This document shows, one piece after another, positions 20,611 through 52,621 of a stretch of 64,000 nucleotides of DNA; within the stretch, counting starts at the first letter, position 1; each line of letters starts with the position of its first letter. The stretch is from an uncultured Bacteroidales bacterium. GTDB lineage: Bacteria > Bacteroidota > Bacteroidia > Bacteroidales > UBA932. A model generated the notes under the pieces. It was given only the letters and a program-made list of their open reading frames with translations, ran no database searches and had not been told where the DNA came from. Location of the stretch: NCBI GenBank assembly GCA_944323245.1, contig CALURT010000013.1, positions 274-64,273 on the forward strand, given 5' to 3'. The position numbers were made by a program, and so were the translations under genes.

Positions 20611-22521
20611 ATGAGTCACACTCACGGAGACAGTCATTCTTCAAAATCCCGGTTGGTATGGGCTGCCCTGTCGCTCATCCTGCTTGCAGCGGGTACGGTA
20701 ATCGGCAGAACGGATTCCGGATGGTTCGAAAACAGGACCGTGGAAATTATATGGTATATTGCGGCCTTTCTGCCGGTCGGCCTCCCCGTAATGAAAGAGG
20801 GATGGGAAGAATGTCTGAAAAAGGATTTTTTCAATGAATTCGTACTGATGAGCATAGCTTCAGTCGGAGCTTTCTGCATAGGCGAATATCCGGAAGCCGT
20901 AGCGGTAATGCTGTTCTACAGCATAGGAGAGTCATTGCAGGGAATGGCCGTGGACAAGGCGACGCGCAATATCGGCGCTCTCCTTGATGTCAGGCCGGAA
21001 CGTGCGAGAGTCCTGAGAAACGGTGATTTCGTCGAAATCCCGCCTGAAGAGGCTGTTCCTGGAGACATAATAGGGCTCAGGCCCGGGGAAAGGGTACCTT
21101 TGGACGGAAAAATGGACGAAGGTGAAGCGATGTTCGACACGTCGGCCCTTACCGGAGAAAGTCTTCCCCGGAATATAAAGACAGGAGAAGAAGTACTGGC
21201 GGGAATGATAGTATGCGACAGGCCTGTCAGGATCATGGTCACCAAGCCGTACGACCAGAGCGCGTTGGCACGGATTCTCGACCTTGTCAGGGACGCTTCC
21301 GAAAGGAAGGCCCCGGCTGAACACTTCATCCGGAAATTCGCCCGTGTCTATACTCCGGCGGTAATCCTTCTGTCGGCACTTATAATATGTGTTCCGGCAG
21401 TCATCGGAGCGACAGTCCCTTCATTTGAGTACGATTTTCAGGAATGGCTGTACCGCGGACTCGTATTTCTCGTCATCTCATGTCCGTGCGCCCTCGTCAT
21501 CAGCATACCTCTCGGATATTTTGCCGGAATAGGCGCAGCTTCCCGCAGAGGCATCCTCTTCAAGGGAGGCAACTATCTCGATGCGATCACGAAAGTGACG
21601 GATGTGGCTTTCGACAAGACAGGCACGCTGACCACGGGCAGATTCCATGTCTCGGCAGTCGTACACGAACCTCATGTCAGCGAGGAAAAACTGCTCGGGA
21701 CAATGGCTTCGGCTGAAGGAAAAAGCAATCATCCCCTTGCCAAGGCAATTGCGGAACATGCGGAAAGGCGCAATATCATGACGACCGGACCCTCCTCCGT
21801 CACGGAAATACCGGGATACGGGATAGAAGCGTCTGTCGGAGGGGAAAACGTCCTTGTCGGAAACGGCGCACTTTTGGAAAAACACGGGATTCCTGTCCCC
21901 GGAGCAGGCATAGCAAGCGGCGTGACTGCGATATACTGTGCCATTGACGGTCGGTTCGCAGGATATGTTCTGCTCGCAGATACTCTGAAGGAAGATGCCA
22001 AGGCTGCCGTTGCCGGTCTCAGGGCGGCAGGCGTGGAAAACCTGTGCATGCTGTCGGGAGACAGGCAGGAAACCGTCAGAGCCTATGCTGAAGAACTCGG
22101 ACTTACGGAAGCGCACGGGGAAATGCTGCCGGAAGACAAGGCCGCATACGTGGAAGGTCTGTCCCGCTCCGGCGGACACACTGTAGCATTCGTGGGTGAC
22201 GGGATGAACGATGCTCCGGTACTTGCCGTCAGCGACATCGGAATCGCCATGGGAGGTCTCGGCTCCGATGCCGCCATAGAAAGCGCAGACATAGTGATAC
22301 AGACCGACAGTCCGTCGAAAATCGTCACCGCATTGGCGATAGGCCGGTACACAAGGAGAATCGTGATACAGAACATCGTCGGCGCAATATCAATTAAAAT
22401 GATTATTTTGCTTGCGGGTGCGTTCGGTTTTGTATCTTTGTGGGCGGCCGTGTTCGCTGACGTCGGCGTCGCCCTGTTGGCCGTCATGAACTCGATGCGG
22501 ATCATGGCCAAGAAGTTTTGA
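20611..22521 (+). CDS. Heavy-metal (Zn/Cd/Co-type) P1B ATPase
   Basis: His-rich N-terminus [29 protein letters not shown]. Confidence 0.88.
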
Positions 22522-22558
22522 CCAAGGGATTATATTCGTCAGACCGCCATTATTGACA

Positions 22559-25033
22559 ATGAAGAAAACAGAAATATTTCCGGTAACAGGCATGAGCTGT
22601 GCGGCTTGCGCAGCCCGTGTGGGCAAAACGCTTCAGCAGCAGAAAGGAGTCGAAGATGCCAACGTCAATTATGCATCCGCTTCCGTACGCGTGACATACG
22701 ACACGTCCGTCTGTAGTGCCGAAAACCTGAAGACAGCCGTGCAGAATGCAGGATACGACCTCATAACGGAAGAAAAGCCGGGAGAAAATCCTGCGGAAGA
22801 AGCAGCCCGGAAAAATTACCGCCAGCTCGTAAGACAGACGACAGCATCAGTCGTGCTTGCCGTACCGGTAGTCATCCTGAGCATGTTGTTCATGGACTCC
22901 GAACCCGTAAAATACATAGTCTGGGCCCTCTCCACCGTAGTGGTATTTCTTTTCGGCAGAAGATTCTACATAAACGCATGGAGGCAGCTCAGGCACGGCT
23001 CCGCCAATATGGACACATTGGTCGCATCGAGTACCGGCATAGCCTATCTTTTCAGCCTTTTCAATCTGTTTTTCCCTGAATTCTGGATCTCAAGAGGCAT
23101 GGAACCCCACCTTTATTTCGAATCCTCCGCAGTCATCATTGCCTTCATACTCTTGGGCAGGACATTGGAAGACAGGGCGAAACGGAAAACTTCCACCGCC
23201 ATCAGAAGTCTGATGGGACTGCAGCCGAAAACCGTCACGTTAATCACGGAATCCGGAGAAAAGACCGTCCCTGTGGAAAGCACAATGGCAGGAGACATCA
23301 TCCTCGTCAGGCCGGGAGAAAGAATTGCCGTTGACGGGAGCGTAGTTTCAGGAGAATCATACGTGGATGAAAGCATGCTGACGGGAGAACCTCTGCCGGC
23401 CTTCAAGAAGAGCGGAGATGCGGTATTTGCAGGGACAGTAAACCAGAAGGGAGGTTTCAGGTTCAGGGCCGAAAAGACAGGTCAGGATACCATGCTTGCA
23501 CAGATAATCCGCATGGTACAGGATGCCCAAGGGAGCAAGGTACCGGTCCAGCAGCTTGCCGACAGGATTTCCGCAGTCTTCGTTCCGGTGATAATGTCAA
23601 TAGCCGTCATCGTCTTTTTCGCTTGGTGGATTTTCGCTCCGGAAGAAGGGTTGGCACACGGCATTTCATCGATGATTACCGTATTGATAATCGCCTGCCC
23701 GTGCGCTTTGGGGCTTGCCACACCTACAGCAATTATCGTGGGTATCGGCAAGGGGGCTGAAAACGGAATCCTCATCAAGGATGCGTCGGCATTGGAAACG
23801 GCAAGGAAGGTCGATACCATAGTGATGGACAAGACAGGGACTGTTACCGAAGGTCATCCAGCCCTTGTCGGGTTGTACTGGAGACGGGATACGCCTGCAC
23901 TCCGCTCTGTCCTGCTGAGTTTGGAAAAACTTTCCGGCCATCCCGTGGGTGAAGCGGTGGCAAAAGCCTTAGGTGACGAAAAAACTGTGGATATAACCGG
24001 ATTTGAAACCGTCCCGGGCAGAGGCGTCTGCGGAATGGCAAACGGAGAAAAATATTTTGCCGGCAACCGGGAAATGCTCGTCGAAAACGGAATTGCAATC
24101 CCGTCCGACATCGAAAAGAAGGCTTCGCAGTGGATTGAAGAGGGAAAGACGGTGGTCTGGTTTTCCGACTCGTCGGAAGCAGTGGCAGCGGCAGCCGTGT
24201 CCGACAGGATAAAGGAATCTTCAGCAAAAGCCGTGGAAACCCTCGGACAGATGGGCATCAAGGTCTGCATGCTGACCGGAGACAATGAACGTTCGGCTGC
24301 AGCCACAGCACGGGAAACCGGTATTCATGAATATGTGGCGGGGATGCTCCCGCAGGACAAGGCCTTGTTTATCAAAAAACTGCAGGCAGAAGGACATTGC
24401 GTCGGAATGATCGGAGACGGGATAAACGACAGCGCCGCATTGGCCCAGGCCGACCTGAGCATCGCCATGGGCAAAGGGAGTGACATAGCCATGGAGACGG
24501 CCATGATTACAATACTTTCTTCCGACCTCATGAAAATTCCGGATACTGTCAGACTGTCACGGCTTACATTGAGAACGATCCACCAGAACCTGTTCTGGGC
24601 ATTCATATACAATATCATTGCCGTACCGATAGCCGCCGGTGTCCTCTATCCGTTGAACGGATTTCTTCTGAATCCGATGATAGGAGGCGCAGCCATGGCA
24701 TTCAGCAGCGTCAGTGTGGTAACGAACAGTCTCAGACTCAAGGGAAAGAAACTGCACGCCGGCAAATGTTCCGGACGTCAGGATACCTCTGTACAGGAAA
24801 CAATATTGAAAAAGGATAACAAGATGAAAAAGGAATTCAAGGTAGACGGCATGATGTGCAATCACTGCCGCACACACGTGGAAAACGCCCTCAACAGCAT
24901 GGAAGGCGTCTCGGCAACAGTAACTTTGGACCCTCCGGTGGCAACCGTGGAAGCTGACCGGGAAATCAGTACGGCAGAACTTCAGTCTGTAATATCCGAA
25001 AAAGCCGGGGACTATACCATACATGAAATCTGA
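22559..25033 (+). CDS. copA: Copper-translocating P1B ATPase with N- and C-terminal HMA domains
   Basis: [27 protein letters not shown] and MAFSS Cu(I) motifs, C-terminal GMMCNHC. Confidence 0.9.
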
Positions 25034-25457
25034 TTCCATGGACGACAGAAACGAAAGCCTGATTTTAGAGAGGAAAGGCGTCAGGCCTACCGCCAACAGA
25101 ATCCTTGTACTTAGGGCCATACGTTCCCAGTCAAGGCCTGTATCGCTGACAGAACTGACGGAAATAATGGAAACCGTGGACAAGTCCAGCATTTTCAGGG
25201 TGCTGGGCCAGTTCGTGGAACATCATGTCGTGCATACCATCGAAGACGGCAACGGCATATTGAAATACGAAATATGCGACGGCGAAGACGACTGCACCTT
25301 GGACGACATGCACGCCCATTTTTATTGCGAAATCTGCCACCGCACATTCTGTTTCAAGACTACGCCGATACCGGAAATAGAACTCCCGGACGGATTCACA
25401 GCAGAATCCGTCACCTACATGGTCAAGGGAATCTGCCCGCATTGTTCGCGGGCATAA
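25023..25457 (+). CDS. Fur family metal-responsive regulator
   Basis: wHTH RPTANR...[15 protein letters not shown] and CPHC zinc sites. Confidence 0.85.
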
Positions 25458-25516: not shown

Positions 25517-25524
25517 TATCTTTG
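25517..25524 (+). promoter_or_regulatory. Bacteroidota housekeeping -7 promoter box upstream of kinase operon
   Basis: TATCTTTG matches TAnnTTTG, 35 nt before ATG 25559. Confidence 0.6.
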
Positions 25525-25558
25525 TCAGAATTGGGAAAACAACTAAACCACAACTGAT

Positions 25559-26230
25559 ATGAGATGTAAAAACTGCGGTTGGGAAAATGAATCCGGCAGT
25601 ACAAAATGCGAAAAATGCAATGCTCCCCTTTCCGACCCGGCAACGGCCCAATACGAAAACAGATCATTCGGTTCTTCTGAGAACGTAAACCTTAAAGGTA
25701 CAGTTTCGGAAGACAGTTTCTTCGGCAACAGACCAGCATCCGGGGGGGGCAATTTTCATGAATCCGGCAAATGCCGCAAATGCGGCTATCCTTTGGCACA
25801 TGGCATGACCGTATGCCCGATGTGCGGGACACCAACCGGGAACAACACCAATCACGACTTCAACAGGGGCTACGACTCCGGCCCTTCAAACCAAGCATCC
25901 CCATCAAGACAAGGGACTGTAAATCCGTGGGCTGCTCCCAATTCCGGAGCATCCTGCTCCTTGAAACCATTGGCGTGGGACAATGAGGGCGAACACGAAG
26001 CAATGCGTCTGTCCGGGGACAGGATTATCCTCAACAGGGCGAATACTGACCCTGCCAACAATACGATTACTTCTGGAGAACAGGCCGAACTGACTTTCGA
26101 AAACGGAGCCTGGTATATCTGCGACAAGAGCTATCAGAAGACGACATACGTCCATGCCGGCCACAAGATGAAACTCGAAAAGGGTGACATCATAATCCTC
26201 GGGAACAGACGGTTCGAATTCAATTCCTGA
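25559..26230 (+). CDS. Zinc-ribbon + FHA domain protein
   Basis: Four CxxC pairs (CKNC, CEKC, CRKC, CPMC); C-terminal FHA-like region ILNR...TYV...LEKGDIIILGNRRF. Confidence 0.75.
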   Translation: MRCKNCGWENESGSTKCEKCNAPLSDPATAQYENRSFGSSENVNLKGTVSEDSFFGNRPASGGGNFHESGKCRKCGYPLAHGMTVCPMCGTPTGNNTNHDFNRGYDSGPSNQASPSRQGTVNPWAAPNSGASCSLKPLAWDNEGEHEAMRLSGDRIILNRANTDPANNTITSGEQAELTFENGAWYICDKSYQKTTYVHAGHKMKLEKGDIIILGNRRFEFNS

Positions 26231-26236
26231 TTTGCC

Positions 26237-27520
26237 ATGCCGGAATATGACATAGCGGAAAGGTGTGAATTCCATTGCGGGGACACCCTTGACGGCAAAT
26301 ACAGGATAGAACGTCTGTTGGGAGAAGGTTCTTTCGGGACTGTCTACAAGGTAAGCGACGCCGGCGGCAATGAATATGCTGCCAAACTGCTGAAATTGTG
26401 GGCCGTAATGCCTGAAATATCCAAAAACCTCCGGGACAGGTTCACGATGGAGTTCGAGACCGGACGGATAAAAAGCGACAACCTTGTACATTCCCATTCC
26501 TACGGCGAAGTAAAAGGCAATCCGTACATTGTGATGGAGTATTGCCCGAACGGTGATTTGCGCCACTATGCCTCCTCGCACCACGTAGACTATGTCCGTG
26601 TCGGGAAACAGGTCCTGAGAGGCTTGGGCGACCTGCACGGCTGCGGCAAGGTACATAGAGACCTGAAGCCGGAAAATGTCCTGCTCCGCAGGGACAATAC
26701 CGCCGTTCTGACGGATTTCGGAATTTCCGGAGACAGGAACAAGCGCATGACCGAGCGAGGCTGGATAGGCAAGCCGCAGCAGATATTCGGGACATATCCC
26801 TACATGCCTCCGGAACAGGTAAACCCTCCGAGAGGTGGCCAGGCTACGGTATTGCCGACCACAGACATTTTCTCTTTCGGAGTCATGATGTATGAACTCC
26901 TTGTCGGGGATCTGCCTTTCGGCGAACTGAATGAAGATACCCTGCACACCTATCTTGCAAACGGCAAGACGGGTAAATGGGACAGGGATGCCCTGCGGAA
27001 AGCCGACAGGTCGGGAGTATGGCTTCCGGTCATTGAAGGCTGCCTTGTCCCGGACTTCAAGAAAAGGCTTCAGAGCACGGAAGAAATCATAAGGATGTTG
27101 CCATGCGATCCCGAAGCATACCGTCAGGAACCTGTGTACAGGTCTTTCATGAATGTCCGCACCGGCATTCTGTTAAGAGTGATGCAGGGAGAGGAATACG
27201 GCAAGGTCTACTGTCTTGACAGCCTGCTGCATGGGAACAGGATTCTGACAGTCGGACGTATGGACCGATCCGTAAGGAATTCCATTCCCGTACAGGAAAC
27301 CGGAAGCGCATACGTATCACGCATGCACTGCACACTTGAAAAGGACGGCACGACAGGGAAATGGTTCATCAGGGACGGGCAATGGGACGGGAACTGGTGG
27401 AAACCGTCCCTCAACGGGACTTACGTCAACTCGACCGAAGTCGGTGAATCCGGAATGCCGGTAAAGCCGGGGGACATCATCTCAATCGGCGACGTGAAAC
27501 TACGTGTAGAAGGATATTAA
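26237..27520 (+). CDS. Hanks-type Ser/Thr protein kinase with C-terminal FHA domain (soluble)
   Basis: LGEGSFGTVY, YAAK, HRDLKPEN, DFG, YMPPE; FHA motifs VGR, VSRMH, NGTYVN. Confidence 0.9.
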   Translation: MPEYDIAERCEFHCGDTLDGKYRIERLLGEGSFGTVYKVSDAGGNEYAAKLLKLWAVMPEISKNLRDRFTMEFETGRIKSDNLVHSHSYGEVKGNPYIVMEYCPNGDLRHYASSHHVDYVRVGKQVLRGLGDLHGCGKVHRDLKPENVLLRRDNTAVLTDFGISGDRNKRMTERGWIGKPQQIFGTYPYMPPEQVNPPRGGQATVLPTTDIFSFGVMMYELLVGDLPFGELNEDTLHTYLANGKTGKWDRDALRKADRSGVWLPVIEGCLVPDFKKRLQSTEEIIRMLPCDPEAYRQEPVYRSFMNVRTGILLRVMQGEEYGKVYCLDSLLHGNRILTVGRMDRSVRNSIPVQETGSAYVSRMHCTLEKDGTTGKWFIRDGQWDGNWWKPSLNGTYVNSTEVGESGMPVKPGDIISIGDVKLRVEGY

Positions 27521-27534
27521 TCAAAGTAATTTAT

Positions 27535-28425
27535 ATGGTCATTATGGTCAGAAGAATTGTCATTCAGATACTTTTCATGCTGCTCTGCACGGCGGTGCCT
27601 GTCCTTGCGCAGGACTGCTACAAATTTACCCGCACGCAGGCGATTTCATATTACGAAAAGGGAGAGTACCGTATTGCACGCGACCAATTCATTGCAGCAA
27701 AGGACTGTCCCGACAAACCTGAGGATAACGACCTCGACTCGTGGATAGCCAGATGCGACTCCGCAATCGCCGAAATTGGGCGAAAAGCCGAAGCGGAACG
27801 GCAACGCCGCATCGAGGAAGAACGGATAAAGGCAGAGGAGCGAAAGAGGGAGGAACAGGCCCGCATTGCCGAAGAGAAACGGCTTGCCGAGGAAAAGAAG
27901 CGTGAGGAAGAACGGAGACAGCAGGAAATCAGGGACAGTATAGCAAGGTACAGTTTGACTGAAACCCAAATGGTCCTGTACCCGTTCGGAGTGCTTACGG
28001 ACAAAACGGAAACCCTTACTATTGCGGATGTGCTGAGCGGATTGGAGTCTGTATTTGCCGGAAATGTCAGCAAATATCAAAGTTCTGTATTCCTTTACGG
28101 CATATCTCCTTATTTCTATAAAGGATTTTCCGACAAAATAATCGCCACATGTTATTTTTCCGAAGGAAAAGTTTCCCTATATTCATACGACCTCACATTC
28201 CTCAAGTCAGAATATTCCCAAAAGGAAGTGCTGGACATGGCAAATGAATTTGCCGCCGCTCTGACTGCAGCAGGAGCTGAAATGTCCGTGGTTGAACCGA
28301 TTGGAACAGAGTCTTTGCGAATTGAAGGAGAATTTGCCGGAAAAACAATATGGATTAATTCCTCAGAGTGTTCTTATGTCCAAAAATTCGACAGCTGGTA
28401 TTTTAGAGTGACTTGTCTCCAATGA
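27535..28425 (+). CDS. Secreted protein with TPR-like helices, E/R/K coiled coil and unknown C-terminal domain
   Basis: Signal peptide ending VLA-Q, YYEKGEY...AKDCPDKP...WIARC, long charged helix. Confidence 0.65.
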   Translation: MVIMVRRIVIQILFMLLCTAVPVLAQDCYKFTRTQAISYYEKGEYRIARDQFIAAKDCPDKPEDNDLDSWIARCDSAIAEIGRKAEAERQRRIEEERIKAEERKREEQARIAEEKRLAEEKKREEERRQQEIRDSIARYSLTETQMVLYPFGVLTDKTETLTIADVLSGLESVFAGNVSKYQSSVFLYGISPYFYKGFSDKIIATCYFSEGKVSLYSYDLTFLKSEYSQKEVLDMANEFAAALTAAGAEMSVVEPIGTESLRIEGEFAGKTIWINSSECSYVQKFDSWYFRVTCLQ

Positions 28426-28462
28426 TTCTCACCTGTAAATACATGAATATATAGACAAAGCG

Positions 28463-29397
28463 AACTATGGAACTGCAACCCGGAACATTGTTCAACGACC
28501 GCTACCGCCTTATCAGGGAAATCAGCCGGGGCTCGTTCGGCGAGGTCTGGCTCGCCCAGGACGAACGCCTCGACCTCGAAGTGGCGGTAAAAGTGTACAT
28601 CGCCCTCGACAGCAGAGGAATCGAGGAGTTCAAGACCGAGTACAAGGTCGCATATACTCTAAACCATCCGAACCTTCTCCATGCACATCATTTCGATGTC
28701 TGCGGGAACAGGCCTTTCCTCGTGATGCCGTTCTGTCCCTCCTCGGCAGTCGCACATATCGGACAGACAGACGAACAGACAGCATGGAGGTTCATCATGG
28801 ATGTCGCTGCTGGTCTCGATTTCCTTCACGGGCAGAACATCGTACACAGGGATATAAAGCCCGACAACATCCTGTGCGATGCCGAAGGACATTTCCTCAT
28901 CACGGACTTCGGAATCAGCGTAAAGATGAAAAGCACATTGCGCAGGAACTCAACCCGCAAGATGGATACTAATGCCGCAGGGACTATCGGATACATGGCC
29001 CCGGAACTCTTTTCAGCGAATCCCGACGCAGTGATGGCCACTGACATCTGGGCTTTGGGGGCTTCACTTTATGAAATGATTACGGGAGAACTTCCGTTCA
29101 TGGGACAGGGAGGCGTAATGCAGCTCCACGGGGCAGAAGTCCCGGAACTGAAAGGGGATTTCTCCCAGGCCCTGAAGGAGACGCTCGCTGCATGTCTTGC
29201 AAAGGACCCGTGGGACAGGCCGACTGCCGATCGGCTCCACGAATTCGCCAAGGCCGTCCTCGATGGAGGCTGCCCCTCCGCCCCGTGGATAGAATCCGCA
29301 GCGAAAAAACGAGAGTCGAAAAGTACCGTCAAAACCTCTCGCCGGACCGTGAAACAGAATGCTCCGCAGCCTGTCCCCGCCGACCCAAACGCCACCC
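28463..29397 (+). repeat. Kinase-module direct repeat, copy 1 (partner 33775-34709)
   Basis: Near-identical DNA at constant offset 5312, with scattered mostly synonymous differences. Confidence 0.92.
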
Positions 29398-30041
29398 GGC
29401 CAGTCGGGGAACAATCGCAAAAACTGCTTCGGCAGAATGATTCTGACAGAAAAATCTGGGTACTGCTGATTATCAGCATAGGAATACTTGTATTCAATCA
29501 GTTGATACGCCTGTTCTCATACGAATATCCGATACTGCCGCAATGGGAACACGTTTTCCGACATGGTTACGGAGAGACAATTCTGATTCTTCCGGCATTG
29601 GCTGCATTGGTATTACTCACTGCCAGAGCCGTGCTTTTCTGCATGATATTCAGAAAAAGCAAAACCCCGCTACAAAAAATATCCGCAGCAACAGTAGCGA
29701 TAAGTATCATCTACGACGTGATCATCACCATTTGGCTTAACGCGTCAAAAGAAACGTTGGGGAATGAAATTTTAGGATTGCGTTTCCCGGTGTGGCTTTG
29801 GGCAGTGTCATTCATTTTAATGAATATCCGCACTTTGGGTATATGCATTCTGATCTGGTGCACAGGCAAAAACATTGCAGCTAAGATAACGGCAGGAATA
29901 TACCTGCTCCTGCTACTGGCTGACTTGGTCAATCATGACATCAGCAATTTGTATTACGTCACGGTACATTCCATTGCATTAATTTCCATGGTTATAATAT
30001 ACAATATCTACATGAAATCAGCAATGCTTCCAAAACAATAG
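28467..30041 (+). CDS. Membrane Ser/Thr protein kinase A (kinase + multi-TM tail)
   Basis: SRGSFGEVW, VAVK, HRDIKPDN, DFG, GTIGYMAPE; about six hydrophobic segments after aa ~330. Confidence 0.9.
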   Translation: MELQPGTLFNDRYRLIREISRGSFGEVWLAQDERLDLEVAVKVYIALDSRGIEEFKTEYKVAYTLNHPNLLHAHHFDVCGNRPFLVMPFCPSSAVAHIGQTDEQTAWRFIMDVAAGLDFLHGQNIVHRDIKPDNILCDAEGHFLITDFGISVKMKSTLRRNSTRKMDTNAAGTIGYMAPELFSANPDAVMATDIWALGASLYEMITGELPFMGQGGVMQLHGAEVPELKGDFSQALKETLAACLAKDPWDRPTADRLHEFAKAVLDGGCPSAPWIESAAKKRESKSTVKTSRRTVKQNAPQPVPADPNATRPVGEQSQKLLRQNDSDRKIWVLLIISIGILVFNQLIRLFSYEYPILPQWEHVFRHGYGETILILPALAALVLLTARAVLFCMIFRKSKTPLQKISAATVAISIIYDVIITIWLNASKETLGNEILGLRFPVWLWAVSFILMNIRTLGICILIWCTGKNIAAKITAGIYLLLLLADLVNHDISNLYYVTVHSIALISMVIIYNIYMKSAMLPKQ

Positions 30042-30065
30042 ACAACAAAGAAAACAGATAACATC

Positions 30066-31643
30066 ATGCCACAATCTACACAAACCTACAGACGTTCCCT
30101 TGCCGGCTCGGTCGGAGCCGGAATGAAATCGGTCTTCGGAGGAAGCGGCCGGCGGTTCTATACCTTGGTACACAAAGTATCCAGCAAATACCACAAGGCC
30201 GGAGAAGCCCAGCAGATCATCGTCGACCAGATAGAGATCGGACGCGACCCTCTCTGCCAAGTCAGGTTCGACGAGTCATTCGTTACGGTCAGCCGCCGCC
30301 ATGCGGCCATAGTCAAGGACGGCGACAACTGGAAACTCATCCAACTCTCGCAGACCAACTCCACCTATCTCAACGGCCACAAGGTCCAGAAAGAATGGTA
30401 TCTTCAGAACGGAGACGAAATTCAGCTCTCCACAAACGGACCGAAACTCGGGTTCATCATACCCGAAGGCAAGAAAGGACTTGTCAGCAGTATCAACCTG
30501 ACTGCCCGTCTCAATCTGTTCCGCCAGCAGGCTCTGCGTCCGTATAAAAATGCCATTACGGCATTGGCGTGCCTTCTCGTCGCCGGTGCAGGAGTTGCCG
30601 GTGCGCTGATATACAGCCAGCACAAGGAAATCAGCGAACTGAACAGGATGTACGTACAGGCGCAGGATGTAATAGAATCCGTCAAAAGAGAAAACAATGA
30701 ACTCGGTAAGGCCTTCGAAGACATGGAGGAAAAAGCCCGTCAGCAGGACTCCATAATAGATGCCGGCCGAAAGGAAATCAACCGCATCAAATCGGCTTCC
30801 CCTCAGGCCAACGTGGCCCGGCTCATCGAGTCCGTGCGGTCAAGCGTCTATTTTATCGTGACCACGGTATATGTCAGGATAGGAAATGAAACGCAGGCAA
30901 TCGGAGCAAGCAGCGGAACAGGATTCCTGCTCAAGGACGGCAGATTCGTGACGGCCCGGCATTGCGTGGAGCCATGGCTGTTCGGAGGAGACATCGAGCT
31001 CAATGTAATGAACGAATCCTATGACAATGTCACCGTATGGTCGGAGATCAAGGCTTATGGAGTGAAGAACGATGACTTTACCCTACGCAGTTCGGACTTT
31101 ACCATTGACCGCAGCATGGATGTCATGTTGAACGCCGGTACGGATGACTACGGAAATCCGATGAAAATGAGATTGGCTTACTATTACGAATACACGGACC
31201 CGGAAACAGGGAAAGTCACGAAATACGGGGACATCAGAATGGGAGGCACGGACTGGGCAGTCGCAAGGACAGCCAAACGCGGGACAATCGAAGCTGACGC
31301 CAACCTTTCAGCATCCTTGACACAGGGAACTGAAGTCCATGTGCTCGGATTCCCTGCCGGTTTGGGTGCAGGAGACGGACAAAGCCGTATCGAACCGATA
31401 TATAACAAGATGAATGTGGCACGCAACGGGCTGAACAGGCAGGGCTGCATTATGGTAAGCCAGGGCGTGGCCCACGGAAATTCCGGCGGCCCGGTATTTT
31501 CCGTCAAAGACGGCAGGATTTATGCTGTCGCCATCGTCTCAAAACTCGAATCCGCCACGCAGCAATACAATGACAGCGGAACAGCCATAACACAACAGCA
31601 ACAGCAATATGACCAATTGGTCCCTATAAGGAACATACGATGA
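30066..31643 (+). CDS. FHA - TM - coiled coil - trypsin-like serine protease
   Basis: FHA motifs IGR, VSRRH, NSTYLNG; TM AITALACLLVAGAGVAGALIY; catalytic triad motifs TARHC, TDWAV, GNSGGP. Confidence 0.88.
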   Translation: MPQSTQTYRRSLAGSVGAGMKSVFGGSGRRFYTLVHKVSSKYHKAGEAQQIIVDQIEIGRDPLCQVRFDESFVTVSRRHAAIVKDGDNWKLIQLSQTNSTYLNGHKVQKEWYLQNGDEIQLSTNGPKLGFIIPEGKKGLVSSINLTARLNLFRQQALRPYKNAITALACLLVAGAGVAGALIYSQHKEISELNRMYVQAQDVIESVKRENNELGKAFEDMEEKARQQDSIIDAGRKEINRIKSASPQANVARLIESVRSSVYFIVTTVYVRIGNETQAIGASSGTGFLLKDGRFVTARHCVEPWLFGGDIELNVMNESYDNVTVWSEIKAYGVKNDDFTLRSSDFTIDRSMDVMLNAGTDDYGNPMKMRLAYYYEYTDPETGKVTKYGDIRMGGTDWAVARTAKRGTIEADANLSASLTQGTEVHVLGFPAGLGAGDGQSRIEPIYNKMNVARNGLNRQGCIMVSQGVAHGNSGGPVFSVKDGRIYAVAIVSKLESATQQYNDSGTAITQQQQQYDQLVPIRNIR

Positions 31644-32497
31644 AATCACTGACAGCAACATTGGCCCTGTCATTCATCACATTGACAGGATTTGCCCAAA
31701 TCTCGTTTCAGACAAACAACCAGCAGATTATCGAAGACGCCGTAGCCGGAGGTCTCCTGATCGTCCGTCAGGAATATCAGTTGGAGGATACGGTGTCCAT
31801 GAAGCGTTATACTTGGAACAACCGTCCCGAATTCGGCAGTACCCTTTCGTTCTGCGTGCTCGCGGAAAACGGATATGTCATCTCCAATTCCGTCCTCAAG
31901 CCATGGATGCATGACCCCAAATTCGACAAATACAAGGATTCCGCATATCGCCCGGTACTCACTGACACATGGTACAAGTCCGCTGCCTCAAGGGATTTCC
32001 GCAAGGCGGACTGCGTTGCAACGGACGACACCGTACATTTGTCCGACTCAAGTTTGGTTTATGTCAAGGACACTCTTTTCGGACAGGGCTTTGCAATTGA
32101 CACTATGCCCGGGACAAAGGACGGCTGGATAGTATGGCTGACTTCCAAAGATGAGGAGAGCATCGGATCCGACTCCCTTATGCTGATAACTTATCGCCAC
32201 AAACTGACCGTACTGGCAGACAGGGACATTTACGAAATCCCTGCCCCGACCTCATCAAGATACGTCATCGGAGGTGTCTATGTGGAACCGGGATACACCG
32301 GCATAGGCAAAATTGAATTCCGACTCGCTGGAATAATCGTGAAAAACGGAGAAAAGTGGCAGATGTGCAAAATATGCCGGACGAAAAAGGCAGGCAATGA
32401 AAGCACCCTGTCCGAAGATACCGGGACACTGACTCCGGCAGCATCGGAAACGCATGGAATGGAAGAAACAAAAGAACAAGGTCATGAAAAAGATTAA
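31640..32497 (+). CDS. Secreted hypothetical protein, possibly a catalytically inactive trypsin-fold protein
   Basis: Signal peptide; 4-nt overlap with the upstream stop; loose similarity to the neighbouring protease without catalytic His/Ser. Confidence 0.6.
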   Translation: MKSLTATLALSFITLTGFAQISFQTNNQQIIEDAVAGGLLIVRQEYQLEDTVSMKRYTWNNRPEFGSTLSFCVLAENGYVISNSVLKPWMHDPKFDKYKDSAYRPVLTDTWYKSAASRDFRKADCVATDDTVHLSDSSLVYVKDTLFGQGFAIDTMPGTKDGWIVWLTSKDEESIGSDSLMLITYRHKLTVLADRDIYEIPAPTSSRYVIGGVYVEPGYTGIGKIEFRLAGIIVKNGEKWQMCKICRTKKAGNESTLSEDTGTLTPAASETHGMEETKEQGHEKD

Positions 32498-33776
32498 GTT
32501 CAGGTTAGCTGCATATACCGATGCAGCGGGCAAAAGGAACGATGTCCCTCCCCTTTATGGCAACGAGGACAATTTTTACGTGGACGCAGACCTGTCGGAA
32601 GAGCCGCAGGGAGAATTTTCTTCCGACGAGGAAAAGGCCCTGTCCGATTACGGTTCGCTCTTGGTCATTGCAGACGGCATGGGCGGGATGAATGCCGGAG
32701 AAGTCGCATCCGAAATAGCCGTCCGTACCGTCAAGGAATGTTTCGCACATAAAAATCTGACTGACCGGATCGTCGCAGACGCTGAATCGAGGGAACGCTA
32801 TATGGAGCATGTCGTGGAGGAAGCGGATGCTGCAATCAAGGCCCGTTCGCAGGAAAACAAGGAATGCGAAGGGATGGGAAGCACCATAATCATGGTATGG
32901 ATATGCGACGGAGTTGCTTCCGTCACATGGTGCGGCGACAGCAGGGCATACCTGTTCCGTGAACCGAAAGGCATAGCGCAAATCTCGAAAGACCATTCTT
33001 ATGTGCAGTCCCTTGTAGACGACGGCAAAATTACCGAAGAAGAGGCGTTTGACCACCCTTATGGGAACATCATTACACGGAGCCTCGGAGATCCGGAGAA
33101 AAAGGCAAAGGCTGACAGCGTGACTGTGCCTTTGTACAAGGGGGACATAATTCTGGTCTGCAGTGACGGCTTGAGCGGAGTTCTGCGGGACCATCCTTTG
33201 TCCGACGGCACACCTGCGGCAAATCTCGAAGAAATCATACGCTCCAACCGCTCTTCGATGCAGTCCTGCCGAGAAGCCCTGTTCTCTGCTGCCGAACAGG
33301 CCGACTGGTATGACAACGTGACCGCAATCCTGTATGAGATTACGGACGGGGCTGCGGCTCCGGAACCTGAATGTGACAAGGCAGGAACTGAAACCGCCGT
33401 CAGCAAGAGTTTCATCAATATCAGAATCAGCAAAAAAAGGCTTCTGTACTGGATCATTGCACTGATTGCGGTTGCAGCCGTCGCCTGCGGCGGATTTTTC
33501 GGGATAAAGTTCCTGAAAGAAACGGACCAGCCGGCACCTGTGGAGGAGCAACTGCAGCAACCGGTTCCTGAAAATCCCGGCACGCAAGTACCTGCTCCAG
33601 GAGAATCTCAGGACGAACCTTCGGCTTCTGCCTCCGTTGATGTCTCCGCTCCCCTGACTGACGAAAAAATCTCAGGCAATAGTCTGACACCGGTGACTGA
33701 CTCAATCAATAGTCTGACACCGGCAACTGATTCAATCAATGGACTTACACCTGCCCCTGAACCTCAAAGACAATAA
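32484..33776 (+). CDS. PP2C-family Ser/Thr phosphatase with C-terminal TM and low-complexity tail
   Basis: IADGMGG, CGDSRAY, CSDGL, DNVT; TM LLYWIIALIAVAAVACGGFFGI; start re-called at ATG 32484. Confidence 0.9.
   Translation: MKKIKFRLAAYTDAAGKRNDVPPLYGNEDNFYVDADLSEEPQGEFSSDEEKALSDYGSLLVIADGMGGMNAGEVASEIAVRTVKECFAHKNLTDRIVADAESRERYMEHVVEEADAAIKARSQENKECEGMGSTIIMVWICDGVASVTWCGDSRAYLFREPKGIAQISKDHSYVQSLVDDGKITEEEAFDHPYGNIITRSLGDPEKKAKADSVTVPLYKGDIILVCSDGLSGVLRDHPLSDGTPAANLEEIIRSNRSSMQSCREALFSAAEQADWYDNVTAILYEITDGAAAPEPECDKAGTETAVSKSFINIRISKKRLLYWIIALIAVAAVACGGFFGIKFLKETDQPAPVEEQLQQPVPENPGTQVPAPGESQDEPSASASVDVSAPLTDEKISGNSLTPVTDSINSLTPATDSINGLTPAPEPQRQ
33678..33757 (+). repeat. 30-bp coding tandem repeat (~2.7 copies) in PP2C tail
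   Basis: AATAGTCTGACACCGG(TG/CA)ACTGA(C/T)TCAATC twice plus a degenerate third copy; encodes NSLTPVTDSI NSLTPATDSI NGLTP. Confidence 0.85.
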
Positions 33777-34709
33777 CTATGGAACTGCAACCCGGAACAT
33801 TGTTCAACGACCGCTACCGCCTGATCATGGAAATCAGCCGGGGCTCGTTCGGCGAGGTCTGGCTCGCCCAGGACGAACGCCTCGACCTCGAAGTGGCGGT
33901 AAAAGTGTACATCGCCCTCGACAGCAGAGGAATCGAGGAGTTCAAGACCGAGTACAAGGTCGCATATACTCTCAACCATCCGAATCTTCTCCATGCACAT
34001 CATTTCGATGTCTGCGGGAACAGGCCTTTCCTCGTGATGCCGTTCTGCCCTTCCTCGGCGGTCGCACATATCGGACAGACAGACGAACAGACAGCATGGA
34101 GGTTCATCAGGGATGTCGCTGCTGGTCTCGATTTCCTTCACGGGCAGAACATCGTACACCGGGATATAAAACCCGACAACATCCTGTGTGATGCCGAAGG
34201 ACATTTCCTCATCACGGACTTCGGAATCAGCGTGAAGATGAAAAGCACATTGCGCAGGAACTCAACCCGAAAGCTCGAATCAAACGCCGCAGGGACTATC
34301 GGATACATGGCCCCGGAACTCTTTTCCTCGAATCCGGACGCAGTGATGGCCACTGACATCTGGGCTTTGGGGGCTTCCCTGTATGAAATGATTACAGGGG
34401 AACTTCCGTTCATGGGACAAGGAGGCGTAATGCAGCTCCACGGGGCAGAAGTCCCTGAACTGAAAGGGGATTTTTCCCAGTCCCTGAAGGAGACCCTCGC
34501 TGCATGCCTTGCGAAAGACCCATGGGACAGGCCGACCGCCGACAGACTCAATGAATTCGCCAAGGCCGTCCTCGATGGAGGCTGCCCCTCCGCCCCGTGG
34601 ATAGAATCCGCAGCGAAAAAAAGAGAGTCGAAAAGTACCGTCAAAACCTCCCGCCGGACCGTGAAACAGGATTCTCCGAAGCCTGTCCCCACCGCCACGA
34701 ACGCCACAG
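33775..34709 (+). repeat. Kinase-module direct repeat, copy 2 (partner 28463-29397)
   Basis: Near-identical to 28463-29397. Confidence 0.92.
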
Positions 34710-35938
34710 TCCCGTATTCCGGCGACATGAATGACGGCCCGGTCATAAGGGAACGCAACTGGTTCGTAAACGTGTGTATATGGCTCTCTATCGTGGCGAG
34801 TGTATTGTACACTGCAATCTATTGCATTTTGACTATCAACAACTATGAATATACAGGAGCGTCCCGTGCAGCAGCGGTGTGCAGCACATTGTCCGCGATT
34901 GCCGGATGGATGGTCTGGAAATACAATCGTCTCGGACTTTGGCTGTATCTTGTCGCCCAATGTGTAATTTATGTTGTCATGCCACTTAAGATCACCGGCA
35001 TGACTATTCTCTGGCCCGGCACTATAATCGGAGCGGTCTTCGTCATCGGGATTTTTCTGATACGCAGGAACGGGATTTCCACATGGAAACTCATGGATTA
35101 CAGGATAAGAGGCATAAGCACGTATATTGTAGCAGCTATAGGAGCGGTTGCCATGATTGTGTCGATGGTAATTCCGAACGGAGCGGTCATAGGCGCCCGC
35201 AAAAGTATTGAAAAATACCTGCTCAATGTCGGCGAATGCAAAGAGATAATAGCTCAGGAACAGCCTTCTGCAGAGTCACTGATAGACGCAAAGAGAATCC
35301 TTGAGAGAATCGAGAGCGATGATGTCCGTTATAGAGACATCGACAGTCGTTACTCGGAAAGTCCGGCACTCAAAAATGCCCTGAAAGACAAGACAGAAGC
35401 TGTCGCAGAACAGTGGGCGACAGCCGCCAAGTCACAGACACGAATCGGAAACACTGACAAGGCGGCCGAATTCCTGTCAACCGCCTTGCTGTTGGACGAA
35501 AAATACAGGCCGGATTTCGAAAAGGCGGCTGAAAAGGTGGGGTACATGAAGCCGCTGTCTATAGAATTGAAGACAGACGGCGGGGAATGGGGAGAAATTC
35601 TCTACGCCGACAAAATCAGATACCTATACCCGAGGCTTACGTACAAATCATTGGATTCCAAAGAAAATCATGACGTCAAGCTGATTGTGAAAATATACAA
35701 CAACGGACAACTGAAATACAATGCTTCAGAATACTCATCCTCCTATAGTTACAGTGAAGACATTACGGTAGATTCAGCGGGAGGAAGATGTGAACTGACA
35801 GGCTGGGGCAGCGATAAGGGTGGCGTATATTCGGCCGGCCCACTCCTCGTGGAAGTGTGGTGCAATGGCAACAAACTGATAAGCAAGTCAGCCACAATAT
35901 ACAACAGCGACCTTCGTCCCAACTACATTGGTGATTAA
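33779..35938 (+). CDS. Membrane Ser/Thr protein kinase B (kinase + multi-TM + extracytoplasmic domain)
   Basis: Same kinase motifs as kinase A; about five TM segments, then a helical region and a beta-rich C-terminal domain (LTGWGS...VEVWCNG). Confidence 0.9.
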   Translation: MELQPGTLFNDRYRLIMEISRGSFGEVWLAQDERLDLEVAVKVYIALDSRGIEEFKTEYKVAYTLNHPNLLHAHHFDVCGNRPFLVMPFCPSSAVAHIGQTDEQTAWRFIRDVAAGLDFLHGQNIVHRDIKPDNILCDAEGHFLITDFGISVKMKSTLRRNSTRKLESNAAGTIGYMAPELFSSNPDAVMATDIWALGASLYEMITGELPFMGQGGVMQLHGAEVPELKGDFSQSLKETLAACLAKDPWDRPTADRLNEFAKAVLDGGCPSAPWIESAAKKRESKSTVKTSRRTVKQDSPKPVPTATNATVPYSGDMNDGPVIRERNWFVNVCIWLSIVASVLYTAIYCILTINNYEYTGASRAAAVCSTLSAIAGWMVWKYNRLGLWLYLVAQCVIYVVMPLKITGMTILWPGTIIGAVFVIGIFLIRRNGISTWKLMDYRIRGISTYIVAAIGAVAMIVSMVIPNGAVIGARKSIEKYLLNVGECKEIIAQEQPSAESLIDAKRILERIESDDVRYRDIDSRYSESPALKNALKDKTEAVAEQWATAAKSQTRIGNTDKAAEFLSTALLLDEKYRPDFEKAAEKVGYMKPLSIELKTDGGEWGEILYADKIRYLYPRLTYKSLDSKENHDVKLIVKIYNNGQLKYNASEYSSSYSYSEDITVDSAGGRCELTGWGSDKGGVYSAGPLLVEVWCNGNKLISKSATIYNSDLRPNYIGD

Positions 35939-37123: not shown

Positions 37124-38035
37124 TCATTGTACGGCTATTGTCTCATAAACAATGCGTGAAATTCCGGCAATCGCCGCTTCGCAGGCCTCTGCCGGTTCAT
37201 CGGCATTCTTCACGAACACCGCTATACAGTAATGCCTTCCGTCGGACAATTCCACTATTCCGACATCGTTGACTGCTGTCAGGCGTCCGGTTTCATCCGT
37301 ATCCCCCGTGCCTGTCTTGTGTGCGAGGACTGCATCCGAGCCTTCAAGACCTTTCTGCAGGCGGGCATTTCCGGTCGTGCATGAGAGCATTATTTCCATC
37401 AGCTCTCCTTGCATTTCCGGGCCGAGAATTTCTCCAGAATAGAGTTTTTCCAAAAGGTGTACGGCAGCAGCAGGCGAAGCCGTGTTGAAATATGAATTTC
37501 CGATATTTTCGTGCATCTGTGCCTCGGTCATGGATATGCTGAACCCGTCTATTCCGTATGAACGTATGCACGAATCCGTCTGTGCAGGAGTTACGAAGCG
37601 GCTGAAAAGGATGTCGCAGGCATTGTTGTCGCTCAATCCCAAGGAATACTCCAACAATTCCCTGACGGTCAGGTCAATATTACCTTCAGGAAAAGTATCC
37701 CGCAACGGGCTATAGGTGTTTTCCTGCAGGTCCTGCCGTGTAATATGCACAGTCTCGTCAAGAGACCTTCCGCTCCTTTCAAGGAAACCGCAGACCGCTA
37801 TCGCCTGAGGCAGTTTGACAACGCTCGCCAACGGATACTCCCCCGGCTCTCCCGCTACCGCCGATTCCCCGTCATACAACACTGCCACGCCGACCTCCGC
37901 ATCCACCTGAACTGCAATGGAATCTATCCGGCTTTCCAATTCCCCTGCATCAAATACGTTCCTGCTCCCGCAGGATACGGAAAGGATTCCCGCCACGCCC
38001 CACACTACCGCCGCAATCAAACATTTCAGCTTCAT
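37124..38035 (-). CDS. Class A (subclass A2-like) serine beta-lactamase, predicted lipoprotein
   Basis: SxxK (ASVVK), SDN, omega-loop EAQMH, HKTG; lipobox-like LSVS-C at aa 22. Confidence 0.85.
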   Translation of the reverse strand: MKLKCLIAAVVWGVAGILSVSCGSRNVFDAGELESRIDSIAVQVDAEVGVAVLYDGESAVAGEPGEYPLASVVKLPQAIAVCGFLERSGRSLDETVHITRQDLQENTYSPLRDTFPEGNIDLTVRELLEYSLGLSDNNACDILFSRFVTPAQTDSCIRSYGIDGFSISMTEAQMHENIGNSYFNTASPAAAVHLLEKLYSGEILGPEMQGELMEIMLSCTTGNARLQKGLEGSDAVLAHKTGTGDTDETGRLTAVNDVGIVELSDGRHYCIAVFVKNADEPAEACEAAIAGISRIVYETIAVQ

Positions 38036-38053: not shown

Positions 38054-38090
38054 GTTTGTCAAAGATAAAGAATTTGAAAGCAATTCACAA
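38054..38090. repeat. 37-bp direct repeat, left copy; contains the minus-strand -7 box for the beta-lactamase
   Basis: GTTTGTCAAAGATAAAGAATTTGAAAGCAATTCACAA; one mismatch to 38914-38950; CAAAGATA (38060-38067) reads TATCTTTG on the minus strand. Confidence 0.85.
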
Positions 38091-38131
38091 CAAATTGTTG
38101 TATAATTATACAATTTTTGTATATTCGCAGA

Positions 38132-38464
38132 ATGAAACGGATAATTGCATATAAATGTTATTTCAGCGACTTCATAAATAAATTGTCGTATGATGAAATC
38201 CGGAAGATACAACGTGCCTTGGACTTGTTCAAAGTCGAGGAATTGATGCCACGGCATTTCATCAAGTATATCCGTGACGGGATTTATGAGTTCAGAGTGA
38301 CATGCAGACGCAATGAGTTCCGCATATTTTTCATTTATGACGGCGATACTATTGTAGTATTGTTCAACGCTTTCAAAAAGAAAACGCAGAAGATTCCAGA
38401 CACAGAAATCAGAAAGGCGATAAAATTAAAGGAGGAGTATTATGAAACTAAAGGAAATAAGTAA
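38132..38464 (+). CDS. Type II TA toxin, RelE/ParE superfamily (Gp49/DUF891-like)
   Basis: DGIYEFRV, FRIFF, VVLFNAFKKKTQK; precedes an HTH gene. Confidence 0.8.
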   Translation: MKRIIAYKCYFSDFINKLSYDEIRKIQRALDLFKVEELMPRHFIKYIRDGIYEFRVTCRRNEFRIFFIYDGDTIVVLFNAFKKKTQKIPDTEIRKAIKLKEEYYETKGNK

Positions 38465-38747
38465 GGACATTTACGATGTCGATGCCTGGCTCGACGAAGG
38501 CCTCGGCAAAGAAGGAACTCCGGAACGGGAGAAAAACAGGGAAAAGGCATGGGAGGAATACAATGCACAGATTCTCCTTGATGCAAGGAAGAACGCCCAT
38601 CTGACACAGGCGGAGCTTGCGGCTCGCATCGGTGCGGATAAATCATACATCTCACGAGTTGAACGCGGACTGACTGTCCCTTCCGTAGCCACACTTTATA
38701 AAATAGCTGCAGCAATGGGACTGACCGTGGAACTCCGCCCGATGTAA
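38442..38747 (+). CDS. XRE-family HTH antitoxin
   Basis: LTQAELAARIGADKSYISRVERG; overlaps the toxin 3' end. Confidence 0.85.
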   Translation: MKLKEISKDIYDVDAWLDEGLGKEGTPEREKNREKAWEEYNAQILLDARKNAHLTQAELAARIGADKSYISRVERGLTVPSVATLYKIAAAMGLTVELRPM

Positions 38748-38913
38748 ATTCAGTATTTGACTAATCAAAGTCCGGATTTTCCGGGCTGCTTCATCAGCAT
38801 TTGATTGATGTTTGATTAGGACTCATCAAAAGTTCGGGGGCGTTTTCACAATTCCCCTTTTTATTTCCGGCAAAAATGAAGATCGCGACTGCCAACAGAA
38901 TTTCAAAGAGGAG

Positions 38914-38950
38914 GTTTGTCAAAGATAAAGCATTTGAAAGCAATTCACAA
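38914..38950. repeat. 37-bp direct repeat, right copy
   Basis: GTTTGTCAAAGATAAAGCATTTGAAAGCAATTCACAA, offset 860 from the left copy. Confidence 0.85.
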
Positions 38951-38997
38951 TTGCAACGCTGTCAGATACGATAATAAATCAGTTAAAATAAAAAACA

Positions 38998-39192
38998 TCA
39001 GCGGCTGAATTTATCCCTGATTGAATCAACAAGAGAATTAAATATCCCAGGCTTCAATAGGAGCACGGCCACTACAAGCACCAATAATCCGGCAAGTCCA
39101 AAATATACATCAACGGAGAACGCTGCACCAAGCAATATGATCACTGCCACGACAAGAATAAAAGTCAGGCATCCTTTGTTTGTTGTATTCAT
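38998..39192 (-). CDS. Small two-TM hypothetical membrane protein
   Basis: 64 aa with two hydrophobic stretches; ATGA-coupled to the upstream ORF. Confidence 0.5.
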   Translation of the reverse strand: MNTTNKGCLTFILVVAVIILLGAAFSVDVYFGLAGLLVLVVAVLLLKPGIFNSLVDSIRDKFSR

Positions 39193-40037: not shown

Positions 40038-40119
40038 CTTTCATCTTTAACTTTAGAATGCGCCAAAAAAGTGCATAAATAATCATTTTTTGATTACCTT
40101 TGCACTAAAATTGCTCAAC

Positions 40120-41388: not shown

Positions 41389-41423
41389 ATATCGCTATAT
41401 TTACCAATTCAAAATTACAGGAA

Positions 41424-52620: not shown

Positions 52621-52621
52621 C

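Follow-up and report, generated by a model that had tools for sequence, protein, structure and literature searches.

To our knowledge, signalling by Hanks-type Ser/Thr kinases is almost unexplored in Bacteroidota, and the described systems to which the gene cluster analysed here can best be compared come from elsewhere. In Mycobacterium and Corynebacterium, the universal fhaA-fhaB-pstP-rodA-pbpA-pknA-pknB operon combines FHA adaptors, one of them membrane-anchored, with a transmembrane (TM) PP2C phosphatase and paralogous membrane kinases. The TagQRST-PpkA-PppA-Fha1 pathway of the Pseudomonas H1 type VI secretion system (T6SS) is a trans-envelope switch that consists of a receptor kinase, a PP2C phosphatase and an FHA protein, with periplasmic accessories. 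GarA and OdhI, small soluble metabolic regulators, carry an N-terminal phospho-switch next to the FHA domain; in DegS/HtrA and MarP (Rv3671c), a protease anchored in the inner membrane faces the periplasm. In Sulfolobus, the Zn-finger-FHA protein ArnA (PDB 5a8i) is part of the archaellum regulatory network (PMC7472852, PMC12852372); this small soluble protein, with a Zn ribbon and a C-terminal FHA domain, works with Hanks kinases and a phosphatase. Here we describe a cluster of eight genes, g1 to g8, that resembles each of these systems in some of its parts and is located in a 64,000-nucleotide stretch of DNA (hereafter, the window) from an uncultured Bacteroidales bacterium (GenBank assembly GCA_944323245.1, contig CALURT010000013.1, positions 274 to 64,273 of the forward strand).

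The cluster occupies positions 25559-35938 of the window, on the plus strand, where eight co-oriented open reading frames (ORFs) are separated by intergenic gaps of -44 to +41 bp. In our assessment, which we hold with about even confidence, the eight genes encode a trans-envelope Ser/Thr phospho-relay that is autonomous and accessory and is coupled to proteolysis in the periplasm. The kinase, FHA and PP2C domains are predicted to lie inside, and the protease, a pseudo-protease, the tail of the PP2C protein and the ectodomain of g8 outside. The genome that contains the window (2.32 Mb, 98.9% complete) has three Pkinase matches and two strong FHA matches, all of which fall inside the cluster; the cluster is thus supported as a self-contained phospho-signalling unit.

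The cluster is a genuine, tightly packed operon, in agreement with a first-pass annotation of this DNA that was made from the sequence alone. The promoter box reported in that annotation was found as well: the putative box TATCTTTG (25517..25524, plus strand), 35 nt before the g1 ATG, fits the Bacteroides -7 consensus TAnnTTTG, but no -33 TTTG is present at the canonical spacing of 17-23 nt from it. A sigma-70 promoter and terminator scan, of a type ill-suited to Bacteroidota, yielded no excess over shuffled sequences. Contigs from three gut metatranscriptome datasets, 95-99% identical to the window, span parts of most of the genes and cross the g1/g2, g3/g4, g6/g7 and g7/g8 junctions, which is weak evidence consistent with co-transcription.

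Conservation of the cluster was assessed in 20 loci (L001-L020) obtained by a pattern-seeded search, with the gene order read from tblastn matches and ORF maps. The order g1-g2-(variable genes)-g5-g6-g7-membrane kinase is found in 18 of the 20 loci, in at least eight Bacteroidales lineages, and g6 directly follows g5 in the same proportion of the fetched loci (18/20). Two loci from Aphodosoma show the same order with g6 missing. The carriers are labelled Muribaculaceae, Prevotellaceae, Paludibacteraceae, Lentimicrobiaceae, Odoribacter, Coprenecus, Aphodosoma and Bacteroidaceae, the last of these represented by metagenome-assembled genomes (MAGs), and include two cultured organisms, Segatella copri HF1825 and Palleniella intestinalis PINT. 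In independently sampled genomes from a whole-genome search, viewed as loci with flanks of +/-1.5 kb (L031-L035), g5 is followed by g6 in all four cases with downstream sequence, and g7 comes next where the flank suffices. The first-pass annotation had named a lack of conserved gene order as a finding that would speak against a dedicated system; the gene neighbourhood is, on the contrary, conserved across families. From these comparisons, the conserved core of the system is g1, g2, g5, g6, g7 and at least one receptor kinase (g8); this six-gene set occurs in scattered Bacteroidales of the gut and the rumen.

By contrast with its stable gene order, the occurrence of the cluster is patchy, even within the genus. 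The g5 family was detected in one of the 401 genomes sampled across the phylum, namely, the genome of the window itself, and in 7 of the 401 genomes sampled across the order (6 of 236 genera). Within the genus, three of the 48 other species encode it, with 49-57% identity, and copies that are 83-92% identical were found in MAGs from elsewhere. No homologs of g5 were detected in 72,556 plasmid or 50,697 phage records, and in GC content the cluster matches the genome. The cluster is probably an accessory module that has been gained and lost, with putative horizontal transfer. The 73 flanking ORFs of 14 loci are, by Pfam, mixed housekeeping genes, for example, those for Rnf, DnaA, RF3 and ribosomal protein S3, and no recurrent PADLOC defence family was found among them. 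Given these diverse flanks, the cluster is neither tied to a particular external partner nor consistently placed in a defence island.

The most distinctive product of the cluster is g5 (30066-31643, plus strand), which consists of an N-terminal tail with a threonine at position 5 (Thr5), an FHA domain, a single TM helix (residues 164-182), a variable coiled-coil stalk and a periplasmic trypsin-fold serine protease. Both domains are detected by Pfam (FHA, 4e-16; Trypsin_2, 1.7e-9). Among 19 sequences of the family, the catalytic triad H299/D396/S473 is invariant, as are the FHA residues G59, R60, S76, R77, H79 and N98. Mean identity to the window protein varies along the chain, from 71% in the N-terminal tail, 84% in the FHA domain and 74% in the juxtamembrane segment to 37% in the TM helix, 26% in the stalk and 46% in the protease; therefore, the strongest constraint is on the cytoplasmic head of g5 (compare FHA with protease). 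A threonine at position 5 or 6, N-terminal to the FHA domain, is present in all 19 sequences, and g5 weakly matches the OdhI model (6.6e-10). By analogy, the N-terminal threonine beside the FHA domain suggests an intramolecular switch of the GarA/OdhI type, with Thr5 as the putative phosphorylation site.

The gene that follows, g6 (31640-32497, plus strand), encodes a secreted protein with no Pfam, PADLOC or NCBIfam family match. Its AlphaFold model, based on 14 orthologs, has a pLDDT of 80 and a pTM of 0.75, and the top matches of this model in a Foldseek search against PDB are all chymotrypsin-fold proteases (HtrA1, Deg9, TEV protease, MarP and DegS). In a direct sequence comparison with the g5 protease, hhalign gave only a weak match over 35 columns (E 1.3e-3, probability 19%), so that the fold assignment rests on the structure model. 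The catalytic motifs of the kinases, the phosphatase and the proteases had all been considered intact in the first-pass annotation; this holds for the kinases, the PP2C domain and the triad of g5, but not for g6, whose family has no invariant His or Ser. Therefore, g6, as modelled, is a secreted, catalytically dead pseudo-protease of the trypsin fold. No PDZ domain was detected by Pfam in either g5 or g6.

The phosphatase gene g7 (32454-33776, plus strand; the true start is probably the ATG at 32484) encodes a PP2C domain (Pfam PP2C_2, 1e-15; NCBIfam Stp1/IreP, 193 bits, under the cut-off of 230) with metal-binding motifs that are invariant in 14 orthologs. The domain is followed by one TM helix (residues 333-351) and a variable, low-complexity tail that is predicted to be periplasmic and, in the window protein, contains three LTP[VA] motifs. 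In the g7 orthologs, we counted 17 occurrences of the pattern [LIVM]TP[VIATL], distributed over 11 of the 14 tails; composition-preserving shuffles contained 0.78 on average and never more than 4 in 2000 trials, such that the enrichment is approximately 20-fold. An LTP-type motif is also present in 13 of the 14 C-terminal tails of g6, where T265 is invariant and L264 and P266 are nearly so; residues 264-266 are modelled as a short strand with raised confidence. In the window, copies of [LIV]TP[VIA] lie at residues 411-434 of g7 and 264-267 of g6. The background rate of the broader pattern, [LIVM]TP[VIATL], is 0.24 per 1000 residues in the proteins of the window. Both tails should be extracytoplasmic, and we infer that the LTP motif serves the protease/pseudo-protease pair in docking or cleavage. 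The occurrence of this motif in the outward tails of both g6 and g7 and the invariant N-terminal threonine before the g5 FHA domain are reported here for the first time.

The two genes at the head of the cluster encode predicted cytoplasmic proteins. In g1 (25559-26230, plus strand), Pfam detects two zinc ribbons (Zn_Ribbon_1/DZR) and misses the divergent C-terminal FHA domain. The best relative of known structure for a profile of 12 g1 orthologs is ArnA (E 2.7e-9), in an alignment that covers the Zn-ribbon part as well as the FHA part, and the g1 FHA domain also matches that of g5 in hhalign (E 8e-5). Residues R160, S172 and T196 are invariant in the orthologs, and g1 has two or three Zn ribbons. 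Its FHA domain is a variant in which the Arg and Ser of the phosphothreonine (pThr) pocket are retained (R160 and S172), Gln replaces His, and TT replaces NG. The orthologs also share the string CxL[T/K]P[IL]xW before the FHA domain, with K in place of T in g1 of the window. This ArnA-like protein could act as a cytoplasmic output, and the earlier suggestion that the protease is the only output of the cluster is thus not established. Next to it, g2 (26237-27520, plus strand) is a soluble Ser/Thr kinase of the Hanks type, with an FHA domain at its C terminus (Pkinase, 2.5e-39; FHA, 2.7e-12) and no hydrophobic segment; its orthologs, 50-86% identical, directly follow g1 in 17 loci. The kinase motifs VAxK, HRD, DFG and APE/PPE are present in the kinases of the cluster. 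An additional protein that contains only an FHA domain, of about 223-230 amino acids (aa), is encoded inside some of the related clusters (L016:6098-6769, L020:6931-7602 and L006:13959-14651).

The two membrane kinases differ in their sensor parts. Membrane kinase A, g4 (28467-30041, plus strand; Pkinase, 1e-43), has six hydrophobic segments, predicted to form about six TM helices, and no large ectodomain. Receptor kinase B, g8 (33779-35938, plus strand; Pkinase, 5e-44), has about five TM helices, as judged from hydropathy and the positive-inside rule (with a positively charged loop at 429-445), and an ectodomain. The kinase cassettes of the two genes (28467-29360 and 33779-34672) are about 95% identical in nucleotides, and only 8 of the first 297 residues differ; the similarity stops abruptly near codon 298, and the sequences are completely divergent beyond this point. 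This pattern points to a recent duplication or gene conversion that would have been followed by a sensor swap. In the AlphaFold model of the g8 ectodomain (residues 475-719, pLDDT 93), a five-helix bundle is combined with an Ig-like beta sandwich. Foldseek returned only generic beta-sandwich and helical matches for this ectodomain, and therefore no ligand can be inferred. The beta module itself (35585-35908, residues ~603-710) is widespread: at least 500 representative protein clusters contain it, often as 2-6 copies in tandem, and it co-occurs with MORN, SH3_3, kinase and AbiJ_NTD4 domains. No Pfam family scored above threshold over this module in the eight matched proteins that were scanned.

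Between the soluble kinase and membrane kinase A, g3 (27535-28425, plus strand) encodes a secreted protein with a signal peptide, seen as its single N-terminal hydrophobic segment, a Cys-containing helical N-terminal module, a charged coiled coil and a C-terminal domain. It has no informative match in Pfam, PADLOC, NCBIfam or the PDB sequences. In four related loci (L002, L003, L006 and L019), the ORF directly after a membrane kinase gene contains the N-terminal module of g3, and the tails attached to this module include BACON (L006), PEGA (L002) and the g8-type beta module (L006 and L019). Because g3 and g4 were found in the closest relatives only, they appear to be accessory, lineage-specific components.

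The genes that vary between related clusters are all envelope-related, with BACON, PEGA, CarboxypepD_reg, outer membrane protein (OMP) beta-barrel, TPR and MotA/ExbB domains. In eight loci, the g5 homolog is directly preceded by genes for a MotA/ExbB-family channel and for a coiled-coil protein of about 290 aa (L002:9255-9989, L005:515-2159, L007:8372-9989, L008:8372-9989, L031-L032 and L034-L035). The channel is 43-75% identical between loci and shows weak similarity to ZorA and TolQ, which suggests a subtype of the system that is coupled to the proton motive force. Neither gene is present in the window, and tblastn found none in the genome to which the window belongs at E 1e-5. Three Prevotellaceae-type clusters are headed by a gene for a NusG-like antiterminator of the UpxY family (L018:7070-7807, L011:886-1623 and L014:601-1323; NF033644, 134 bits, cut-off 100). 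UpxY-family antiterminators are otherwise typical of Bacteroides capsule loci, and the position of this gene at the cluster head fits transcription of the cluster as one long transcript. In L009, the same position is occupied by an unannotated ORF of 256 aa (7120-7890) that has no tblastn match to the L018 gene. In six loci of the Prevotellaceae type, the membrane kinase is followed by a trio of genes for proteins of 232, 319 and 595 aa (L018:15428-18896 and the equivalents in L009, L010, L011, L014 and L015), of which the 595-aa protein shows weak matches to OMP beta-barrel and CarboxypepD_reg. A relative of the 319-aa protein with 34% identity is encoded elsewhere in the genome of the window (C5:46963-47577). 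In other loci, FGE-sulfatase, TPR, BACON, PEGA and CarboxypepD_reg proteins follow the core.

In the window, the cluster is preceded on the same strand (20611-25457) by genes for two P-type ATPases, one of which has two HMA metal-binding domains, and by a gene of the Fur family whose overlap with the second ATPase gene is 11 nt. A convergent gene for a DUF362 Fe-S protein comes immediately after g8, and a gene of the class A beta-lactamase family (Beta-lactamase2, 4.6e-35; 37124-38035, minus strand) is the second gene downstream of the cluster. These two genes separate the cluster from a low-GC islet (38054-42161; 0.39-0.42, compared with 0.50 for the genome) that encodes AbiEi, a truncated AbiEii of 143 aa, a HIRAN-domain protein, and a Gp49/HigB-like toxin paired with an HTH antitoxin. 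The islet also contains a TerB-DnaJ (DjlA-like) fusion at 41424-42161, the sole Ter-related gene in the window. In a congener (G406), the Cu-ATPase homolog is followed by a homolog of the window gene at 52598-54040; synteny is rearranged over about 27 kb, and the empty-site comparison yielded no clean insertion boundary.

These observations can be combined into the following mechanism. Receptor kinases with interchangeable sensor modules would be switched by an envelope or external cue and would phosphorylate threonines on themselves and on their cluster partners. The three FHA proteins would then dock on pThr, such that a membrane complex assembles around the kinase. In g5, the Thr5/FHA switch, acting through the TM helix and the stalk, may alter how the periplasmic protease oligomerizes or is positioned; alternatively, the signal may pass in the reverse direction, from the protease to the cytoplasmic head. 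The pseudo-protease g6 and the LTP tails of g6 and g7 would be periplasmic docking or cleavage partners of g5, a partnering that would feed proteolysis back to phosphatase activity, and the PP2C phosphatase g7 would reset the system. The Zn-ribbon protein g1 may carry a second, cytoplasmic output. Most likely, the system functions in envelope adaptation or surveillance in a subset of strains rather than in housekeeping; this accessory role is favoured over a housekeeping one because the distribution is sporadic. More tentatively, the core could define a new class of protease-coupled phosphothreonine receptors, in which FHA-pThr docking, with a GarA-like threonine switch, gates the periplasmic protease via the coiled-coil stalk, and g6 together with the LTP tail of g7 closes a feedback loop in the periplasm.

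Several observations weigh against the interpretation of the cluster as a phospho-relay for envelope adaptation. The sporadic occurrence that favours an accessory role (7/401 genomes across the order, 3/48 congeners) is also typical of conflict systems, and the small toxin-antitoxin (TA) and Abi islet lies only about 2 kb downstream of the cluster. The metatranscriptome contigs are short, may contain DNA and come from related strains, 95-99% identical, rather than from the strain of the window. The LTP-like string in cytoplasmic g1 indicates that the motif may not be purely periplasmic in meaning. The first two of these points bear on a role in anti-phage defence or inter-bacterial conflict, whereby infection or envelope damage would be sensed, and the protease or hyper-phosphorylation would cause abortive infection or envelope remodelling. 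Such a role, proposed in the first-pass annotation, is not established, and we consider it unlikely. It would account for the patchy distribution of the module and for the TA pair, HIRAN and AbiEi/AbiEii genes at 38-41 kb; the similarity, albeit weak, of the MotA/ExbB-like channel encoded before g5 in eight related loci to ZorA of the Zorya system points in the same direction, as do the good scores of the kinase domains against the PADLOC models of PD-T4-6 and mad6. These PADLOC matches, however, are confined to the generic kinase domain, with none for g1, g3, g6 and g7, and the NCBIfam scores are far under the family cut-offs (MAD6, 116-145 bits against 460; PglW, 37-60 against 990). Assignment of the cluster to Stk2, PD-T4-6, MADS (mad6), BREX (PglW) or Mokosh (MkoA) was rejected given that only the kinase domain matches and no partner genes are present. 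Moreover, the flanks of the 14 loci are mostly housekeeping genes, no plasmid or phage copy was found, the GC content of the cluster does not depart from that of the genome, and a periplasmic effector would be unusual for abortive infection.

A module for control of growth and the cell wall, comparable to the actinobacterial Fha-PstP-PknAB cluster, where peptidoglycan synthesis and division would be regulated via FHA adaptors, appears distinctly unlikely. The parts list is of the same kind (FHA proteins, a PP2C-TM protein and two or more membrane kinases), the FHA domain of g5 weakly matches FhaB/FipA as well as OdhI, and the PP2C domain is closest to Stp1/IreP. However, no RodA/FtsW, penicillin-binding protein (PBP) or PASTA domains were detected by Pfam in g1-g8, the scores against PknB_PASTA (NF033483) were 177 and 172 bits compared with a cut-off of 450, and, unlike a housekeeping system, the cluster is absent from about 98% of the sampled Bacteroidales genomes and from 45 of the 48 congeners. 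We regard it as very unlikely that the variable downstream genes encode a surface structure under the control of the cluster, with the protease processing the surface proteins. The UpxY-family gene at the head of Prevotellaceae clusters, the conserved trio after the kinase in six loci, and the BACON, PEGA, CarboxypepD_reg, TPR and FGE-sulfatase proteins that follow elsewhere are all compatible with such regulation, but these partners vary by lineage and none is present in the window, where the convergent DUF362 gene comes directly after g8; the conserved core therefore works without them. Finally, with its kinase/PP2C/FHA triad, the cluster is a module of the PpkA/PppA/Fha1 kind and might be a switch for a T6SS encoded elsewhere. 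The first-pass annotation saw neither a T6SS nor a vWA/TerY target, and both absences were borne out. The sheath protein TssC/VipB (PF05943) was not detected in the genome of the window or in any of the 20 carrier genomes (L001-L020), in a search without a Bacteroidales positive control, and the TagH/Fha model TIGR03354 scored 16.7 bits with g1 and 28.1 bits with g5, compared with a cut-off of 120.25. For the subfamily represented in the window, a T6SS link is thus largely refuted, and we consider this explanation extremely improbable. No vWA or TerY gene was found by Pfam in the cluster, to which this search was confined, and the cluster accordingly does not qualify as a TerY-phosphorylation triad.

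The preferred interpretation, a phospho-relay coupled to periplasmic proteolysis, has several implications. The cluster represents the entire Ser/Thr-kinase repertoire of its genome, and carriers of the module are found among abundant gut taxa of humans and animals, the cultured Segatella copri and Palleniella intestinalis among them. Its study could show how the envelope is sensed and remodelled in some gut Bacteroidales, and it offers compact parts for direct mechanistic work, namely, the pseudo-protease and the FHA-TM-protease, the LTP tails and the interchangeable sensors of the kinases. In this cluster, reading of phosphothreonine is joined directly to extracytoplasmic proteolysis, a coupling for which the literature searched contains no description, in bacteria or elsewhere. 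Should the core prove to be a protease-coupled phosphothreonine receptor, it would be a bidirectional trans-envelope signalling device without a described counterpart; should the conflict explanation hold, the cluster would be a new envelope-based defence.

Compared with the actinobacterial operon, the cluster shares the outward tail of the PP2C protein after the TM helix, an architectural resemblance only, and adds a protease on the membrane FHA protein, a pseudo-protease, a Zn-ribbon-FHA protein and a kinase-FHA fusion; it is also a sporadic, accessory module, whereas the actinobacterial operon is universal. The H1-T6SS pathway differs in its target, the visible output of the window cluster being a protease. 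The similarity of g1 to ArnA extends over the Zn ribbon and the C-terminal FHA domain, but the system of the window is bacterial, there is no archaellum, and the vWA partner ArnB is absent from the cluster. Like DegS/HtrA and MarP, g5 is anchored in the inner membrane with its protease facing the periplasm, and both the g5 protease and the fold of g6 match structures of these proteins; g5 has the His-Asp-Ser triad of HtrA/DegS and lacks their PDZ domain, and with a single TM helix and 31 bits against the MarP model (NF033740, cut-off 250) it does not belong to the MarP family. In contrast to all these proteases, the anchor of g5 consists of a cytoplasmic FHA domain and a coiled-coil stalk, and g5 is paired with a dead, paralog-like partner. 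With GarA and OdhI, g5 shares the N-terminal peptide with a conserved threonine directly before the FHA domain; the FHA module of g5, however, is the cytoplasmic head of a transmembrane protease rather than a soluble regulator. The first-pass annotation knew of no characterisation of this architecture, and, consistently, no published description of a cluster with an FHA-TM-protease was found in the full-text literature searched, a coverage that excludes subscription journals. Thus, the cluster combines signalling of a known kind, by Hanks kinases, a PP2C phosphatase and FHA proteins, with a previously undescribed output and feedback arm that consists of the FHA-TM-protease and the pseudo-protease.

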